Assembly (NCBI RefSeq): GCF_003334385.1
Contig: NZ_QOWN01000014.1
Source: Escherichia coli
Lineage (GTDB): Bacteria > Pseudomonadota > Gammaproteobacteria > Enterobacterales > Enterobacteriaceae
Length of the DNA stretch: 64,000 nucleotides
Reading direction: 5' to 3' (one strand)
Part shown: one piece after another, positions 15,306 to 60,567 of the stretch
How the letters are laid out: each line of letters begins with the position of its first letter
Position numbering within the stretch: the first letter of the stretch is position 1
The notes under the pieces: model-generated
Told to the model about the DNA's origin: nothing
Databases searched by the model: none
What the model saw: the letters and a program-made list of their open reading frames with translations, nothing else
Made by a program: the position numbers and the translations under genes

Positions 15306-15717
15306 AAGAAAACATCCCCTGAGAGTTTAATTTTCGTCAAGATGCGTGGCGGACAATCCCCTGCCAGCGAAACGTTATCTTCCTGCTCCAGGTTTGCGAC
15401 AATTTGCTGCGTCGCAAAAAAGCAAACGTTTAGCTCCGCGCATACAAAACGGGTGGTAAAAAAAGCAAACGATTATCCGGCGATCATAGCGGCTTTTTCA
15501 ACCGAAGTTTGCTGCTTTTTTCTCTTTTATTGTCTTGACGATGAAAAACCAGGCAATTGATGCGCAAACGTTATCGTCGGTGCGCAAGATTGCAGCGTTA
15601 TCGAGCCGTATACCGTTCAGGATTGCGATAAAAAATCGTCTGAGATGACAAAAATATTGCGGTTAAAAAGTATACTTTTACACTGGCGAAGAAACGTCGG
15701 TGACATACAATTAAAGC

Positions 15718-15861
15718 ATCAACACCAACCGGAACCTCCACCACGTGCTCGAATGAGGTGTGTTGACGTCGGGGGAAAACCTCCTGTGTACCAGCGGGAT
15801 AGAGAGAAAGACAAAGACCGGAAAACAAACTAAAGCGCCCTTGTGGCGCTTTAGTTTTGTT
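15718..15861 (+). ncRNA. sraL: Candidate small RNA (SraL/RyjA-like) antisense to the soxR 3' end
   Basis: Good -10 hexamer TACAAT at 15706-15711 about 140 nt upstream of an intrinsic terminator (stem 15832-15839 / 15845-15852, then T-rich tail to 15861); no coding ORF with RBS in the interval; SraL is recalled to lie in the soxR-yjcD intergenic region on the opposite strand. Confidence 0.4.
15832..15861. terminator. Bidirectional intrinsic terminator at soxR 3' end
   Basis: Hairpin AAAGCGCC-cttgt-GGCGCTTT with T-rich run on plus strand and A-rich run upstream (T-run for minus strand); overlaps soxR stop codon. Confidence 0.7.
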
Positions 15862-16315
15862 CATCTTCCAGCAAGCGTGCGCCGGTACCTTCTTCTCCTA
15901 AGCGGTCGCCCGGGTTACGCAACGGGCAATCACTGCGCGAAAGGCAGCCACAACCAATACATCCGTCCAGTTCGTCACGCAGCGCCACTAAGGTATGAAT
16001 GCGCCGATCCAACTCTTCTCGCCATTGGGACGAAAGCTGTTTCCACTCTTTCGCACTTAACGTATGCCCTTCGGGCAACACGCCAAACGCTTCACCAATG
16101 GTCGCCAGCGGAATGCCAATACGCTGAGCAATTTTGATAATTGCAACATATCGCAACACATCACGTTTATATCGCCGCTGATTGCCGCTGTTACGGATAC
16201 TGGTAATCAACCCTTTACTTTCATAGAAATGCAGCGCCGATACCGCCACACCGCTGCGTTTCGCCACTTCGCCGGGGGTTAGCAGCGCTTTAATGCGGGG
16301 TAATTTCTTTTCCAT
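15851..16315 (-). CDS. soxR: SoxR, MerR-family redox-sensing regulator with [2Fe-2S] cluster (154 aa)
   Basis: 154 aa; N-terminal MerR HTH; C-terminal [12 protein letters not shown] cluster motif; divergent from soxS. Confidence 0.96.
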
Positions 16316-16326
16316 AAATCGCTTTA

Positions 16327-16344
16327 CCTCAAGTTAACTTGAGG
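16327..16344. promoter_or_regulatory. SoxR binding site within the soxS promoter spacer
   Basis: Perfect 18-bp palindrome CCTCAAGTTAACTTGAGG between a TTTACC -35-like hexamer (16323-16328) and TATACT -10 (16348-16353), giving the unusual 19-bp spacer. Confidence 0.9.
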
Positions 16345-16400
16345 AATTATACTCCCCAACAGATGAATTAACGAACTGAACACTGAAAAGAGGCAGATTT

Positions 16401-16724
16401 ATGTCCCATCAGAAAATTATTCAGGATCTTATCGCATGGATTGACGAGCATATTGACCAGCCGCTTAACATTGATGTAGTCGCAAAAAAATCAGGCTATT
16501 CAAAGTGGTACTTGCAACGAATGTTCCGCACGGTGACGCATCAGACGCTTGGCGATTACATTCGCCAACGTCGCCTGTTACTGGCCGCCGTTGAGTTGCG
16601 CACCACCGAGCGTCCGATTTTTGATATCGCAATGGACCTGGGTTATGTCTCGCAGCAGACCTTCTCCCGCGTTTTCCGTCGGCAGTTTGATCGCACTCCC
16701 AGCGATTATCGCCACCGCCTGTAG
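16401..16724 (+). CDS. soxS: SoxS, AraC-family superoxide response activator (107 aa)
   Basis: 107-aa ORF with two HTH regions; immediately downstream of the palindromic SoxR box. Confidence 0.96.
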   Translation: MSHQKIIQDLIAWIDEHIDQPLNIDVVAKKSGYSKWYLQRMFRTVTHQTLGDYIRQRRLLLAAVELRTTERPIFDIAMDLGYVSQQTFSRVFRRQFDRTPSDYRHRL

Positions 16725-16726
16725 TT

Positions 16727-18313
16727 TTATTGCCCGCGCGTTAACTCCCGCGCGGGTAATTGCTCCATCCATTGCATAAACACCTGCGGCGGCATCGCCT
16801 TCGCAAAAAACCATCCCTGGCAATAGCGCACGCCGCGTTTGCGCAGCCAGTTAACCTGCTCCTCAGTTTCGACGCCTTCAGCGATCGTTTTTAACCCCAG
16901 GCTGTGCGCCAGCTCGATGATGTGTTCCGCAATCAAATGACTGGTTTTGTGGGTGGTCAGCGTTTCAACAAACGATTTATCGATTTTCAAAATATCGACA
17001 TTCAATGATTTAAGGTTATGCAAGTTAGAGTAGCCAATACCAAAATCATCAATTGCCACTTCGTAACCAGCCTGGCGGAAAGCCAGAATAATCGGCGTCA
17101 TTTTTTCGACATCAAGAAATGCATGCTCAGTCACTTCAAATTTAATTTGCTGCGGACGCACCGCGTATTGCTCTGTTTTCTGATTGATTCGCGCTATCAA
17201 CCGTGACGTATGAAAATCGGAGGCCGACAGGTTAATAGAAACATAGCGATCGGCATGTGTTGCCAAGTACGCGCCCAGATCACGGAAGACATTATCAATA
17301 ACATAATCAGTTATCTGTTCTATCATCCCCTCCTTTTCTGCCAGCGGAATAAACTCTGCCGGATTCATTATTTGCCCCTGCTCACCAAGCCAACGTAACA
17401 ACGCTTCAGCGCCGATACATTTTTCTGTTTTGATATCGATTATTGGCTGGTAATAAAGACAAAGTTGATGTTTTTCGAGGGCGCGTTGCAATTTACGTTT
17501 GGGAGATAAATAGTTTTGTCGAATACGTAGCCAGAGTAATAGCAGAACAAGACTCCCCAAAATACCGGCGGGCAACGCAAAAATAAGATGATTATAAAAA
17601 TGGGTTATAAGACGTTGATATGAAGTCGCAACAATGGCTGCAATTGGGCGTTTTGTCGAATAAACTGTCGCATATAAATAGCCATTTCTTTGTACGGTTA
17701 AATCCTTCAAATGAATCAGCGGAGAAAACGTTGCTGCCGAGGCCTCTTTGCTTAACGAGAAAAAGGTTTTCGTCACCGTATCATACACACCCCATTGCAA
17801 TGTCGGATCATCAGACATCACTTCACTCCAGAAGAGAGGGTTGATAACTGCCACATAATTTCCCCGCTGCATATAGGTCATTTTATAGCCAGAGAAAAAA
17901 GGCGTATCGCGGTAATAATAGATAGAAACGTTAGGTTCACGCTTATAATCGGCCGGTGCAATCGTATAGCCGTTTACAGGCGCTATCAGCGATGAGCATA
18001 AAAAATGGTTATCACGGGCATAGATCAATTCATTAATATAAAGATAGCCACGAATAATATTCAACATTCGCTTTTGATGGGCTGGAGTGCAAACTTGCCC
18101 CTGATAGCGTTCAGCTGCATCGCTCACTAAATCTGCCTGGCGAATGACCAGCTCGGATTTATCCAGTGCCAGTTGAGCAAAGGTTCGGAGCTGATTATTC
18201 ACTTCTGATTTTGCCCAAAGGAAGGCAATCCATAGCGAAAGAATGATGGGAAAGAGAACTAAAAAGATAATGCCCGGCAACGCCAGTAATTGGTGTCGTG
18301 CACGATGACTCAT
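16727..18313 (-). CDS. pdeC: PdeC (YjcC), membrane-anchored EAL-domain c-di-GMP phosphodiesterase (528 aa)
   Basis: Two TM segments flanking a periplasmic domain, then an EAL domain (EALLRW); ATG at 18311-18313 gives 528 aa. Confidence 0.88.
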
Positions 18314-18618
18314 TGCTATCAATTTCCTGCCTGTTTATACCCGGCCATTGCAAGGTGAAAACCCTGGGTACCGACGTCTTTAGATAAATCTTACGGTATA
18401 AATAGCACTTTTGCCTGATTTGAAATTGATACCTTTCTAATCGTCACCTGGATGAAAATAATTCATTGATATTCAAAATTAATTTCCTACAGGAATGCAG
18501 AGGCGGCGGGAAGATATGCCCTTAATGCCACTGAAAAACCACATAATCTGTACAGCAATAAAAGTCACGGCCTAATATGGCTAACAAACAATCAATTGTG
18601 ATATAGTTCACAAAATTA

Positions 18619-18650
18619 ATGAAACAAACAGAGTGTTTCATTTTTGTGTT
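18619..18650 (+). terminator. Orphan terminator-like hairpin in the pdeC-yjcB intergenic region
   Basis: ATGAAACA-aacagag-TGTTTCAT stem-loop followed by TTTTTGTGTT; no plus-strand gene ends nearby. Confidence 0.35.
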
Positions 18651-18742
18651 CTGCAAGCCCCGCGATAGCCAGAGTGTACCACGCCTCCCGTGAACAACGC
18701 CGCGCTGTCCAGGGCATCGGCTCTTTTCAGAGGAATTGTTTG

Positions 18743-19024
18743 ATGGCTACCCTCACCACTGGCGTGGTTCTTCTTCGCTGGCAACTTCTTAGTGCCGTAA
18801 TGATGTTTCTGGCCAGCACACTCAACATCCGTTTTCGTCGGTCTGATTATGTCGGGCTTGCGGTGATCAGCAGCGGTCTGGGCGTTGTTTCCGCCTGTTG
18901 GTTCGCAATGGGGTTGCTTGGCATCACAATGGCGGACATCACCGCTATCTGGCACAACATCGAGTCGGTGATGATAGAAGAGATGAATCAGACACCGCCA
19001 CAATGGCCAATGATTTTGACCTGA
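18743..19024 (+). CDS. yjcB: YjcB, small inner membrane protein (93 aa)
   Basis: ATG at 18743 gives 93 aa (MATLTTGVVLL...); two hydrophobic segments; followed by a terminator hairpin. Confidence 0.75.
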   Translation: MATLTTGVVLLRWQLLSAVMMFLASTLNIRFRRSDYVGLAVISSGLGVVSACWFAMGLLGITMADITAIWHNIESVMIEEMNQTPPQWPMILT

Positions 19025-19029
19025 TACGT

Positions 19030-19060
19030 AGAAGCCTCCATAACGGAGGCTTCTTTTTTA
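19030..19060 (+). terminator. Intrinsic terminator downstream of yjcB
   Basis: GAAGCCTCC-ataac-GGAGGCTTC hairpin followed by TTTTTTAT. Confidence 0.75.
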
Positions 19061-19122
19061 TGGCTGGCAGATGCTTTAATCATCCACCTTAAAACAATAT
19101 AACCTATTGTTTTAATGACAAA

Positions 19123-19659
19123 TCAGAACGGAATGTCATCATCAAAGTCCATCGGCGGCTCGTTAGACGGCGCTGCCGGAGCGGACTGCTGCGGGCGAGA
19201 CTGCGCGCCGCCGCTGAACTGATTGCCACCCTGCGGCTGCTGAGGCTGACCCCAACCGCCCTGCGGCTGACCACCACCGATATTGCCACCTGCCGGAGCG
19301 CCACCACCCTGACGACCACCCAGCATCTGCATGGTGCCGCCAACGTTCACCACGACTTCTGTGGTGTAGCGATCCTGACCGGATTGATCGGTCCATTTAC
19401 GGGTACGCAGCTGACCTTCGATATAAACCTGAGAACCTTTACGCAGATATTCGCTGGCCACTTCTGCCAGTTTGCCGAACAGCACAACGCGGTGCCATTC
19501 AGTCTGTTCTTTCATCTCGCCGGTCGCTTTATCACGCCAGGATTCGGAAGTAGCCAGCGTAATGTTGGCAACTGCGCCACCATTTGGCATGTAGCGTACT
19601 TCCGGGTCCTGACCCAGATTACCAACGAGAATAACCTTGTTTACGCCTCTGCTGGCCAT
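19123..19659 (-). CDS. ssb: Single-stranded DNA-binding protein SSB (178 aa)
   Basis: [29 protein letters not shown]-terminus; Gly/Gln-rich linker; acidic C-terminal tail [11 protein letters not shown] at 19657-19659. Confidence 0.97.
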
Positions 19660-19809
19660 GTTCGTGTCTCCTGAAAAAAATCGTTCTGAATAAGTGTAAA
19701 CGCGCGATTGTACCATTACCAATAGCGCTTTTACTATGTTGTGACCTCGGTTCCGGGAAACAAACCTGGCCAGACATTGTTACACAACACTCCGGGTAAT
19801 GCATTCCAA

Positions 19810-19829
19810 TACTGTATATTCATTCAGGT
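19810..19829. promoter_or_regulatory. LexA box (SOS box) shared by divergent ssb and uvrA promoters
   Basis: TACTGTATATTCATTCAGGT matches CTGT-N8-CAG SOS-box consensus; located in the ssb-uvrA intergenic region. Confidence 0.85.
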
Positions 19830-19912
19830 CAATTTGTGTCATAATTAACCGTTTGTGATCGCCGGTAGCACCATGCCACCGGGCAAAAAAGCGTTTAATC
19901 CGGGAAAGGTGA

Positions 19913-22735
19913 ATGGATAAGATCGAAGTTCGGGGCGCCCGCACCCATAATCTCAAAAACATCAACCTCGTTATCCCCCGCGACAAGCTCATTGTCGTGA
20001 CCGGGCTTTCGGGTTCTGGCAAATCCTCGCTCGCTTTCGACACCTTATATGCCGAAGGGCAGCGCCGTTACGTTGAATCCCTTTCCGCCTACGCGCGGCA
20101 GTTTCTGTCACTGATGGAAAAGCCGGACGTCGATCATATTGAGGGGCTTTCTCCTGCCATCTCAATTGAGCAGAAATCGACGTCTCATAACCCGCGTTCT
20201 ACGGTGGGGACAATCACCGAAATCCACGACTATTTGCGTTTGTTATTCGCCCGCGTTGGCGAGCCGCGCTGTCCGGACCACGACGTCCCGCTGGCGGCGC
20301 AAACCGTCAGCCAGATGGTGGATAACGTGCTGTCGCAGCCGGAAGGCAAGCGTCTGATGCTACTCGCGCCAATCATTAAAGAGCGCAAAGGCGAACACAC
20401 CAAAACGCTGGAGAACCTAGCAAGCCAGGGTTACATCCGTGCTCGTATTGATGGCGAAGTCTGCGATCTTTCCGATCCGCCGAAACTGGAACTGCAAAAG
20501 AAACATACCATTGAAGTGGTGGTTGATCGCTTCAAGGTGCGTGACGATCTTACCCAACGTCTGGCCGAGTCGTTTGAAACCGCGCTAGAGCTTTCCGGTG
20601 GTACCGCGGTAGTGGCGGATATGGACGACCCGAAAGCGGAAGAGCTGCTGTTCTCCGCCAACTTCGCCTGCCCAATTTGCGGTTACAGTATGCGCGAGCT
20701 GGAGCCGCGACTGTTTTCGTTTAACAACCCGGCGGGGGCCTGCCCGACCTGCGACGGCCTTGGCGTACAGCAATATTTCGATCCTGACCGCGTGATCCAG
20801 AATCCGGAACTGTCGCTGGCAGGTGGTGCGATCCGTGGCTGGGATCGCCGCAACTTCTATTATTTCCAGATGCTGAAATCACTGGCAGATCACTATAAGT
20901 TCGACGTCGAAGCGCCGTGGGGCAGCTTGAGCGCGAACGTGCATAAAGTGGTGTTGTACGGTTCTGGCAAAGAAAACATTGAATTCAAATACATGAACGA
21001 TCGTGGCGATACCTCCATCCGTCGTCATCCGTTCGAAGGCGTGCTGCACAATATGGAGCGCCGTTATAAAGAGACAGAATCCAGTGCGGTACGTGAAGAA
21101 TTAGCCAAGTTTATCAGCAATCGCCCATGCGCCAGCTGCGAAGGAACGCGTCTGCGTCGGGAAGCGCGCCACGTGTATGTCGAGAATACGCCGCTGCCCG
21201 CCATCTCCGACATGAGCATCGGTCATGCGATGGAATTCTTCAACAATCTCAAACTCGCAGGTCAGCGGGCGAAGATTGCGGAAAAAATTCTTAAAGAGAT
21301 CGGCGATCGTTTGAAATTCCTCGTTAACGTCGGCCTGAATTACCTGACGCTTTCCCGCTCGGCAGAAACGCTTTCCGGCGGTGAAGCCCAGCGTATCCGT
21401 CTGGCGAGCCAGATTGGTGCGGGCCTGGTTGGCGTTATGTACGTGCTGGACGAGCCATCTATCGGCCTGCACCAGCGCGATAACGAGCGCCTGTTGGGTA
21501 CGCTTATCCATCTGCGCGATCTCGGTAATACCGTGATTGTGGTGGAGCACGACGAAGACGCGATTCGCGCCGCTGACCATGTGATCGACATTGGCCCGGG
21601 CGCAGGTGTTCACGGCGGTGAAGTGGTCGCGGAAGGTCCACTGGAAGCAATTATGGCGGTGCCGGAGTCGTTAACCGGACAGTACATGAGCGGTAAACGC
21701 AAGATTGAAGTGCCGAAGAAACGCGTTCCGGCGAATCCGGAAAAAGTGCTGAAGCTGACAGGCGCACGCGGTAATAACCTGAAAGACGTGACGCTGACGC
21801 TGCCAGTCGGTCTGTTTACCTGCATCACAGGGGTTTCAGGTTCCGGTAAATCGACGCTGATTAACGACACACTGTTCCCGATTGCCCAACGCCAGTTGAA
21901 TGGGGCGACCATCGCCGAACCGGCACCGTATCGCGATATTCAGGGACTGGAGCATTTCGACAAAGTGATCGATATCGACCAAAGCCCAATTGGTCGTACT
22001 CCGCGTTCTAACCCGGCGACCTATACCGGCGTGTTTACGCCTGTGCGCGAACTGTTTGCGGGCGTACCGGAATCCCGTGCGCGCGGCTATACGCCGGGAC
22101 GTTTCAGCTTTAACGTTCGTGGCGGACGCTGCGAGGCCTGTCAGGGCGATGGCGTGATCAAAGTGGAGATGCACTTCCTGCCGGATATCTACGTGCCGTG
22201 CGACCAGTGCAAAGGTAAACGCTATAACCGTGAAACGCTGGAGATTAAGTACAAAGGCAAAACCATCCACGAAGTGCTGGATATGACCATCGAAGAGGCG
22301 CGTGAGTTCTTTGATGCCGTACCTGCACTGGCGCGTAAGCTGCAAACGTTGATGGACGTTGGCCTGACGTACATTCGACTGGGGCAGTCCGCAACCACCC
22401 TTTCAGGCGGTGAAGCCCAGCGCGTGAAGCTGGCGCGTGAACTGTCAAAACGCGGCACCGGGCAGACGCTGTATATTCTCGACGAGCCGACCACCGGTCT
22501 GCACTTCGCCGATATTCAGCAACTGCTCGACGTACTGCATAAACTGCGCGATCAGGGCAACACCATTGTGGTGATTGAGCACAATCTCGACGTGATCAAA
22601 ACCGCTGACTGGATTGTCGACCTGGGACCAGAAGGCGGCAGTGGTGGCGGCGAGATCCTCGTCTCCGGTACGCCAGAAACCGTCGCGGAGTGCGAAGCAT
22701 CACACACGGCACGCTTCCTTAAGCCGATGCTGTAA
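19913..22735 (+). CDS. uvrA: UvrA, excinuclease ABC subunit A (940 aa)
   Basis: 940 aa; two ABC ATPase modules (GLSGSGKSS and GVSGSGKST Walker A); zinc-finger CxxC pairs; divergent from ssb with shared LexA box. Confidence 0.97.
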
Positions 22736-22740
22736 TCGTT

Positions 22741-22768
22741 AAGGCCGCTTTCTGAGCGGCCTTTTCCT
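22741..22768. terminator. Bidirectional intrinsic terminator between convergent uvrA and yjbR
   Basis: AAGGCCGCT-ttctg-AGCGGCCTT hairpin followed by TTTCCTTT on plus strand; sits in the 34-bp gap between the two stop codons. Confidence 0.75.
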
Positions 22769-22769
22769 T

Positions 22770-23126
22770 TCAGAGTTGCACCAGCAATTTACGTTTTTCT
22801 TCCGGCAGTAAATTCACCGCCTGCTGATAAGACGCATCCACCAGATAATAGATTTGCGAATCTGGCAGCGAACCGTCGAGATACACGGTGCTCCAGTGCG
22901 CTTTATTCAGATGGCGGCTTGGACGCACATCGCTGTGCTGCTGACGTAGCAGCTCCGCCAGCTCCGGGCTGGTTTTCAGCGAAACAGCTGGGCGATTTTC
23001 TACTTCTTTCACCATCGCAAACAGTACATCTTCCACTTTGATCTGCGTCGCTTTCCAGTCGTTATGCACGCTCTGTTCTGCGCCTGGTTTTGCCATGCAA
23101 TATTGTAGCAACTCCGAAATGGTCAT
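22770..23126 (-). CDS. yjbR: YjbR, small uncharacterised protein (118 aa)
   Basis: 118-aa ORF recalled as YjbR; position immediately downstream of uvrA. Confidence 0.8.
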   Translation of the reverse strand: MTISELLQYCMAKPGAEQSVHNDWKATQIKVEDVLFAMVKEVENRPAVSLKTSPELAELLRQQHSDVRPSRHLNKAHWSTVYLDGSLPDSQIYYLVDASYQQAVNLLPEEKRKLLVQL

Positions 23127-57895: not shown

Positions 57896-58299
57896 AACAA
57901 TTTCCCTTCATTGAATGAATGGAGATTTACCCAAAAACATTTCGGGCGGGATCGAGTATACACAACTAAAGCATGCGAATTACGGCGCGGGGAATTAGCG
58001 ATGGCGTTTTAGGATAATTGGAATGAATATCAAATATAAGTTTCAACCTATATTTAAATAACAATAAAAATCATAAACTTAAAATAAAAACAAAAGCAAT
58101 TAATCTGCGTATTTTCCGAAATAAACAACGATTAAAAATCTATTTTAGGATTAACCTCACGGTATGATTTCCGTTAAATTACAGACAAGGGGATTTATCT
58201 GATAAAAAAATGCCGACATAACGTCGGCATTGTTATTAAGGTTATTTAATCAATCGTGCTATGTATTAATTGCCGAATACGATGTACATATCGGCATCG

Positions 58300-58383
58300 A
58301 CCTGTAGGCCTGATAAGACGCGACCGCGTCGCATCAGGCATCGGTTGCCGGATGCGGCGTGAACGCCTTATCCGGCCTACATA
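58300..58383. repeat. REP cluster downstream of pgi
   Basis: TGTAGGCCTGATAAGACGCGACCGCGTCGCATCAGGC and GCCGGATGCGGCGTGAACGCCTTATCCGGCCTACA units. Confidence 0.9.
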
Positions 58384-60261: not shown

Positions 60262-60567
60262 GTACTACCTGCGCTAGCGCAGGCCAGAAGAGGCGCGTTG
60301 CCCAAGTAACGGTGTTGGAGGAGCCAGTCCTGTGATAACACCTGAGGGGGTGCATCGCCGAGGTGATTGAACGGCTGGCCACGTTCATCATCGGCTACAG
60401 GGGCTGAATCCCCTGGGTTGTCACCAGAAGCGTTCGCAGTCGGGCGTTTCGCAAGTGGTGGAGCACTTCTGGGTGAAAATAGTAGCGAAGTATCGCTCTG
60501 CGCCCACCCGTCTTCCGCTCTTCCCTTGTGCCAAGGCTGAAAATGGATCCCCTGACACGAGGTAGTT
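60262..60567 (+). promoter_or_regulatory. Lysine riboswitch (L-box) in the lysC 5' leader
   Basis: Long GC-rich structured leader directly upstream of lysC containing AGAGGCGC ... GGAGGAG ... CCUGAGGGG-type segments; lysC is a well-known riboswitch-controlled gene. Confidence 0.75.

Follow-up and report, generated by a model that had tools for sequence, protein, structure and literature searches.

sraL in the ghxP-soxR intergenic region

The gap between ghxP and soxR contains the small RNA gene sraL (ryjA). We analyzed a 64-kb window (the whole stretch of Escherichia coli DNA, 64,000 nucleotides), in which ghxP (yjcD; 13956-15305, minus strand) and soxR (15851-16315, minus strand) flank a 545-bp gap at 15306-15850, the length given by the first-pass annotation. 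On the plus strand, positions 15718-15858 encode an RNA of 141 nt, measured from its 5' end to the end of the terminator stem. Its gene is divergent from the upstream neighbor ghxP and convergent with soxR.

The identity of this RNA is established by covariance-model matching and by its position. Rfam 15 was run at gathering thresholds on the entire window, and RF01408 (sraL) matched 15718-15858 on the plus strand with a score of 146.2 bits (gathering score, 39) and an E value of 8e-33 that applies to all 64 kb. The match is full length (model positions 1-142 of 142) and takes in 109 nt 5' of the terminator hairpin. In MG1655 (NC_000913.3), the noncoding RNA gene ryjA (b4459) occupies 4277926-4278066 on the strand opposite soxR, with ghxP on its far side, and shares 8 nt with the end of soxR (4277933). 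The window sequence and MG1655 ryjA have the same ends and are identical at 140 of 141 nt. The model scan and the coincidence with ryjA thus validate the SraL call, which had first been made from the sequence alone.

SraL at this locus is already known and is not a discovery of the present analysis. It was discovered in 2001, Rfam and the K-12 annotation both include it, and two of its targets have been published. A transcript of ~140 nt that accumulates in stationary phase has been published for both E. coli and Salmonella (PMC12266141, PMC2190706). Stationary phase induces RyjA in E. coli K-12, where the RNA is also listed as RpoS-regulated (PMC12266141).

The RNA is easily overlooked in current genome annotations. 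Of 5426 complete E. coli genomes, 5421 contain the 595-bp region. In PGAP-annotated E. coli records, soxR is the sole annotation at the sraL site and the RNA is unlabelled in most genomes, so a reader of such annotations would find no feature here. A permissive Rfam search of the ghxP-soxR gap detected no second RNA family. The sole extra match in that search paired the palindromic terminator with the sraL model on the minus strand, at 23.7 bits and below the gathering score.

Conservation of the locus

The convergent arrangement of soxR and sraL is general among the Enterobacteriaceae examined. We scanned species-representative genomes with the pattern AACCGGAACCTCC-N(20-45)-GGGGGAAA, which returned 48 loci, 45 of them enterobacterial SraL. 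The other three (L005, L015, and L039) were chance pattern matches with neither soxR nor ghxP and were dropped. SraL genera include Escherichia, Salmonella, Citrobacter, Enterobacter, Klebsiella, Raoultella, Leclercia, Lelliottia, Trabulsiella, Pluralibacter, Silvania, Pseudocitrobacter, and Huaxiibacter, among others. Within the fetched DNA, soxR was found at 44 of the 45 SraL loci, and it is convergent with sraL in all 44.

Overlap with the soxR coding sequence, in contrast, is lineage-dependent. The soxR stop codon overlaps the T-run of the terminator in 29 of 44 species; in the other 15 it lies 2-510 nt beyond the T-run, and SraL itself is unchanged. An overlap with coding sequence is thus dispensable. 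SoxR of Escherichia and some Citrobacter carries a C-terminal ...EQN extension that puts the stop codon inside the stem. The breadth of the shared-terminator layout of soxR and sraL is now documented.

Two of the loci carry unexpected taxonomic labels. Locus L021 is a 2.9-kb contig of a metagenome-assembled genome labelled "Bacillota bacterium" that is 99.7% identical to the E. coli soxR-sraL-ghxP region, and locus L027 (4076-4682) is an enterobacterial soxR-sraL-ghxP locus on a contig labelled "Chryseobacterium sp. 18061". Both labels probably reflect contamination or mislabelling in public assemblies. The window's SoxR protein and the E. coli copies in loci L008 and L021 are 100% identical.

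Secondary structure of SraL

Compensatory changes support the Rfam fold and two of its internal helices. When the Rfam structure was placed on a MAFFT alignment, 95.8% of cells were paired, compared with 40-55% when partners were slid by 1-3 columns. Pairs changed on both sides numbered 8, against 2.7 in shuffles, and none of 500 shuffles reached 8; these counts come from related sequences, retrieved by a search pattern in which two conserved blocks are fixed. Covariation occurs mainly in the helix that closes the 5' domain (4 of 7 pairs) and in the hairpin at 15782-15799 (3 of 6 pairs).

The closing helix delimits a 5' domain at 15719-15766. In the Rfam consensus structure, this helix 1 is formed by 15719-15725 paired with 15760-15766. 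The compensatory changes in its four covarying pairs are on both sides, and 96.5% of its cells are paired across 41 distinct sequences. An RNAalifold consensus instead proposed a long-range CCGG/CCGG pairing made up of invariant pairs only. We prefer the Rfam structure because its helices 1 and 6 carry covariation.

Within the 5' domain lies the invariant block AACCGGAACCUCC (15727-15739, SraL nt 10-22), which is mostly unpaired in the Rfam model. Its identity across the fetched loci is partly by construction, because the block belonged to the search pattern. The Rfam consensus, which is independent of that pattern, likewise gives it in upper case, denoting high conservation. The block is a candidate region for contact with targets or proteins.

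The sraL promoter

The sraL promoter has the features of an RpoS promoter. The first-pass annotation had pointed to a -10-like TACAAT, and we confirm this hexamer at 15706-15711, directly followed by a TAA discriminator motif (15712-15714). The 5' end at 15718, given by both the Rfam match and MG1655 ryjA, lies such that the hexamer ends 7 nt before it and the TAA 4 nt before it. The -35-like element CTGGCG (15683-15688), 17 bp upstream of the -10, is a poor match to TTGACA. Among 46 aligned Enterobacteriaceae sequences, A(-11), A(-9), and T(-7) of the -10 are invariant, and the T, A, and A directly after the hexamer are present in 45, 46, and 39 sequences, respectively. The -35 region reads CTGGC(G/A) in the alignment, with the GG at 15685-15686 invariant (46/46).

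These elements agree with published work on the promoter. Silva 2013 (PMC3753932) described RpoS-type features of the sraL promoter, namely the -10, the TAA, and a conserved but degenerate -35. In the same study, SraL was nearly absent in an rpoS mutant, and RpoS ChIP enrichment of the sraL promoter exceeded 100-fold (PMC3753932). Judged by its -10/TAA and degenerate -35, the promoter in the window appears to be of the RpoS type as well.

The same weak -35 could be read in another way: that there is no independent gene here, the hairpin being only the soxR terminator and TACAAT a chance promoter-like hexamer. A generic sigma-70 scan does report no promoter at 15683-15711, but it misses the sraL promoter because the -35 is too weak, as is expected for an RpoS promoter. 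Against a chance hexamer, the full-length covariance-model match reaches 109 nt upstream of the hairpin, and conservation covers the -10/TAA as well as the body of the RNA, with covariation between genera. Northern blots, 5' and 3' mapping, and RpoS ChIP have also been published (PMC3753932, PMC2190706). Published transcript mapping and the pattern of conservation have thus already refuted a mere soxR terminator, to which we give next to no probability, and we proceed with sraL as an independent gene.

An A/T-rich block, GACAAAAATATTGCGGTTAAAAAG, lies upstream of the sraL -35 at approximately 15645-15668 and is conserved across Enterobacteriaceae. In several genera the block is GGCGAAAAAATTTTGCC-like and quasi-palindromic. 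It may serve as an UP element or as a site for a regulator.

The terminator and its overlap with soxR

SraL ends in a strong intrinsic terminator. A terminator scan placed its sole plus-strand site of the region at 15827-15857, with 13 pairs (6 of them G-C) and a loop of 5 nt, followed by TGTTCATCTT. The whole element spans 15827-15861 and includes the U-rich tail UUUUGUU (15855-15861), which starts within the last three stem bases. As RNA, the plus-strand hairpin folds with -20.5 kcal/mol (z = -7.4 against shuffles) and the minus-strand hairpin with -21.8 kcal/mol (z = -5.7); no shuffle folded as stably on either strand. The stem is near-invariant across species, with one compensatory pair, U-A to G-C, in Pseudocitrobacter sequences. 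The first-pass annotation had placed a strong terminator stem over the soxR stop codon; indeed, the stop TAA (15851-15853, minus strand) sits inside the 3' arm of the stem.

The same hairpin is also the probable terminator of soxR. On the minus strand it occupies 15820-15857 and is followed by UUUGUUUUCC (15829 down to 15820). Under its strict rule, the terminator scan makes no minus-strand call at the hairpin, because the tail after the full 13-bp stem is GUUUUCCG. When the three terminal A-U pairs are counted with the tract, it reads UUUGUUUU, with U at 7 of 8 positions. All 46 sequences retain the A-rich tract 5' of the stem. Viegas 2007 (PMC2190706) noted that the SraL terminator overlaps the soxR terminator on the opposite strand and suggested RNase III cleavage there; our literature searches found no Term-seq or bidirectional-terminator paper that names RyjA. 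The earlier proposal of a shared bidirectional terminator therefore stands in part: the hairpin is stable on both strands and the overlap is published, but the strict rule calls the plus strand only. Bidirectional termination at this hairpin, which has been noted before, is a reasonable inference. The hairpin would then also end soxR transcripts, and the 3' ends of SraL and soxR mRNA would be complementary over ~30-40 nt.

How far SraL is antisense to soxR depends on what is counted. The first-pass annotation had described the RNA as antisense to the soxR 3' end. Overlap is present, but only 8 nt of it (15851-15858) is coding, so "antisense" here refers mainly to the common terminator and the 3' untranslated region (3'UTR). 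The antisense overlap is confined to the soxR stop codon, two further codons, and the 3'UTR with the terminator.

Such an overlap raises the idea that SraL also acts in cis, with soxR mRNA stability modulated, upon the induction of SraL in stationary phase, either through RNase III cleavage of a duplex between the complementary 3' ends of SraL and soxR mRNA or through interference by convergent transcription. The two genes have a terminator in common with the stop codon inside its stem, and the layout is conserved (convergence in 44/44 species, overlap in 29/44). An effect of RNase III on SraL has also been observed, with cleavage within the overlapping terminators suggested (Viegas 2007, PMC2190706). 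The 15 species in which the stop codon stands off the T-run, with SraL unchanged, argue against a cis role, as does the fact that the complementary part of each RNA is held in a very stable intramolecular hairpin. Literature searches found no report of an effect of SraL on soxR. We consider regulation of soxR in cis improbable, and below we treat SraL as a trans-acting RNA.

Coding potential

The sraL transcript shows no convincing open reading frame (ORF) with a ribosome-binding site, in agreement with the first-pass annotation. The only ATG within the transcript, at 15753, opens a frame of 27 codons and has no Shine-Dalgarno sequence. Of 46 aligned species, 17 have this ATG, and only 9 of those keep the length of the frame.

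A small mRNA or dual-function RNA would have to encode either this 27-residue peptide or the product of a 62-codon frame at 15645-15833. Both ORFs exist mechanically. The longer one, however, begins 73 nt upstream of the transcription start, and the shorter has the shortcomings just described. Indels of 1-2 nt are scattered across the region, conservation tracks the base-paired helices rather than codons, and no coding sequence is annotated there in MG1655 or in PGAP records. A coding role is close to refuted, and we assign it only a very small chance; SraL is best regarded as noncoding.

A third frame of 125 codons, started by GTG, runs from inside sraL through the terminator (15760-16137, plus strand) and is antisense to soxR. 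It is almost certainly spurious, because it crosses a strong terminator and has species-specific indels in its 5' part. All three ORFs that overlap SraL (27, 62, and 125 codons) were rejected as not conserved.

A private substitution at SraL nucleotide 62

The single difference from MG1655 ryjA is an A in place of C at SraL nt 62 (C62A; 15779, plus strand). This nucleotide is C in 45 of 45 other aligned species, and a search of 5416 complete E. coli genomes found no exact copy of the 61-mer around 15779. Compared with NZ_CP047277.1, the nearest genome, the window differs across 9000-23000 at two positions only, 15779 and 20419. At 20419 the window has A where NZ_CP047277.1 has G; by arithmetic from the annotated start, this is a third codon position of uvrA. 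C62A could be either a real mutation or a sequencing error.

C62A falls in a short conserved helix, a 3-bp GGG/CCC, whose innermost G-C pair it disrupts; cmscan marks this pair as non-standard. With the substitution, the predicted pair probability goes from 0.49 down to 0.07, and the fold of minimum free energy moves off the Rfam-like fold. These predictions suggest that C62A weakens one small helix and that full SraL function in this strain may not be guaranteed. A stronger proposal is that C62A refolds the central domain and alters SraL stability, ProQ or Hfq binding, or targets. We judge this unlikely, as we do, separately, the cis effect on soxR through RNase III. The allele matters only if it is real and alters function.

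Other features of the gap and the window

The ghxP-sraL gap also contains a PurR operator. This site, GCGCAAACGTTATCGT (15562-15577), is flanked by the promoters of ghxP and sraL, which are divergent. Its reverse complement is ACGATAACGTTTGCGC, the motif listed for the PurR ChIP-chip peak "ryjA/yjcD" (Cho 2011, PMC3159470). Three of the four GCAAACGWT sites in the window cluster in this gap across 15422-15572, at 15422-15430, at 15465-15473, and within 15562-15577. A sigma-70-like promoter on the minus strand (15501 to 15472) overlaps the second of these.

Rfam families were also matched elsewhere in the window. A lysine riboswitch (60280-60476, plus strand; 99.5 bits) and the enterobacterial small RNA STnc430 (58092-58241, plus strand; 77.5 bits) both score above gathering. 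Four minus-strand matches to naRNA4 (nucleoid-associated noncoding RNA 4, CssrE), at 8409-8480, 44418-44488, 48647-48717, and 58307-58377, look like REP-type repeats.

Targets, chaperones, and decay

We are nearly certain that the feature at 15718-15858 is the sraL (ryjA) gene for a 141-nt trans-acting small RNA, and none of the evidence speaks against this identification. The mechanism of SraL comes from published experiments, in Salmonella and partly in E. coli K-12. RNA polymerase containing RpoS transcribes sraL as cells enter stationary phase. Through its 5' part, SraL pairs with a stretch of the tig leader that lies just upstream of the ribosome-binding site, leading to less trigger factor mRNA. 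It also pairs with the rho leader, across a putative Rho utilization (rut) site, leading to no premature Rho-dependent termination and more full-length rho mRNA. Hfq stabilizes SraL and ProQ binds it heavily; its removal proceeds by polyadenylation by PAP I and degradation by the degradosome and PNPase. The targets were studied in Salmonella, and we infer the same ones for this E. coli strain.

SraL lowers tig mRNA approximately two-fold, and direct pairing was established by compensatory mutations, both in vivo and in gel shifts (PMC3753932). The published pairing comprises segments of 7 bp and 3 bp and joins the 5' part of SraL to a site that lies upstream of the tig Shine-Dalgarno sequence by a few nucleotides (PMC3753932). 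For rho, the prevention of premature Rho-dependent termination at a putative rut site of the leader is a Salmonella result (Silva 2019, as summarized in the reviews PMC6582626 and PMC12360218).

Complementarity to these leaders can be found in the E. coli sequences, at a level that shuffled RNAs also reach. GUGCUCG (15745-15751, plus strand; SraL nt 28-34) is the complement of CGAGCAC, which occupies -29 to -23 in the tig leader of E. coli (MG1655). This 7-nt complementarity fits the published description of the pairing, yet 69% of shuffled small RNAs match at least 7 nt, so the tig pairing in E. coli is putative. The exact complementarity search returned 7-nt runs to tig at -29 to -23 and at -74 to -68 and one to rho at -260 to -254. 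Runs of at least 7 nt occur in 69-86% of shuffles, and the tig and rho runs by themselves are thus no evidence of pairing. Simple searches of SraL against the rho leader gave no convincing pairing. Full-length duplex prediction between SraL and the MG1655 tig and rho leaders was uninformative: it returned unrealistic whole-molecule duplexes, and shuffles did as well in 21% (tig) and 61% (rho) of cases.

By the literature, the relevant chaperone of SraL is ProQ, not only Hfq. The first-pass annotation had called the RNA Hfq-associated, which tells only part of the story. In Salmonella, Hfq stabilizes SraL ~3-fold; in E. coli, an early co-immunoprecipitation with Hfq was negative and did not confirm binding (PMC2190706). 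In stationary-phase Salmonella, SraL makes up approximately half or more of ProQ ligands (PMC8136791). Its decay is governed by PAP I polyadenylation, PNPase, and the degradosome (PMC2190706).

Comparison with known systems

The closest known system is SraL/RyjA of K-12 itself (RF01408, b4459). The RNA described here has the same position, neighbors, length, promoter, terminator, and fold, and differs from it only at nt 62.

The arrangement of SraL and soxR resembles that of GadY and gadX, in which an RpoS-dependent small RNA gene is likewise convergent with a regulator gene and the 3' ends are complementary. GadY uses its 3' overlap as the functional pairing site, whereas the known targets of SraL are in trans.

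In its regulation, SraL resembles SdsR (RyeB). Both are RpoS-transcribed, stationary-phase, trans-acting base-pairing RNAs that are conserved across enterics, and SraL was described as the second widely conserved RpoS-dependent enterobacterial small RNA beside SdsR (Silva 2013, PMC3753932). The two nevertheless have unrelated sequences, loci, and targets (ompD and others for SdsR), and SdsR is a classic Hfq small RNA, whereas SraL is a dominant ProQ ligand (PMC8136791).

In its proposed action on rho, SraL resembles DsrA, ArcZ, and RprA acting on rpoS. According to PMC6582626 and PMC12360218, pairing upstream of the ribosome-binding site blocks premature Rho-dependent termination in these systems also. 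Unlike them, SraL has the mRNA of Rho itself as its target, by a mechanism described for Salmonella only, and its chaperone use is reported to be ProQ-dependent (PMC8136791).
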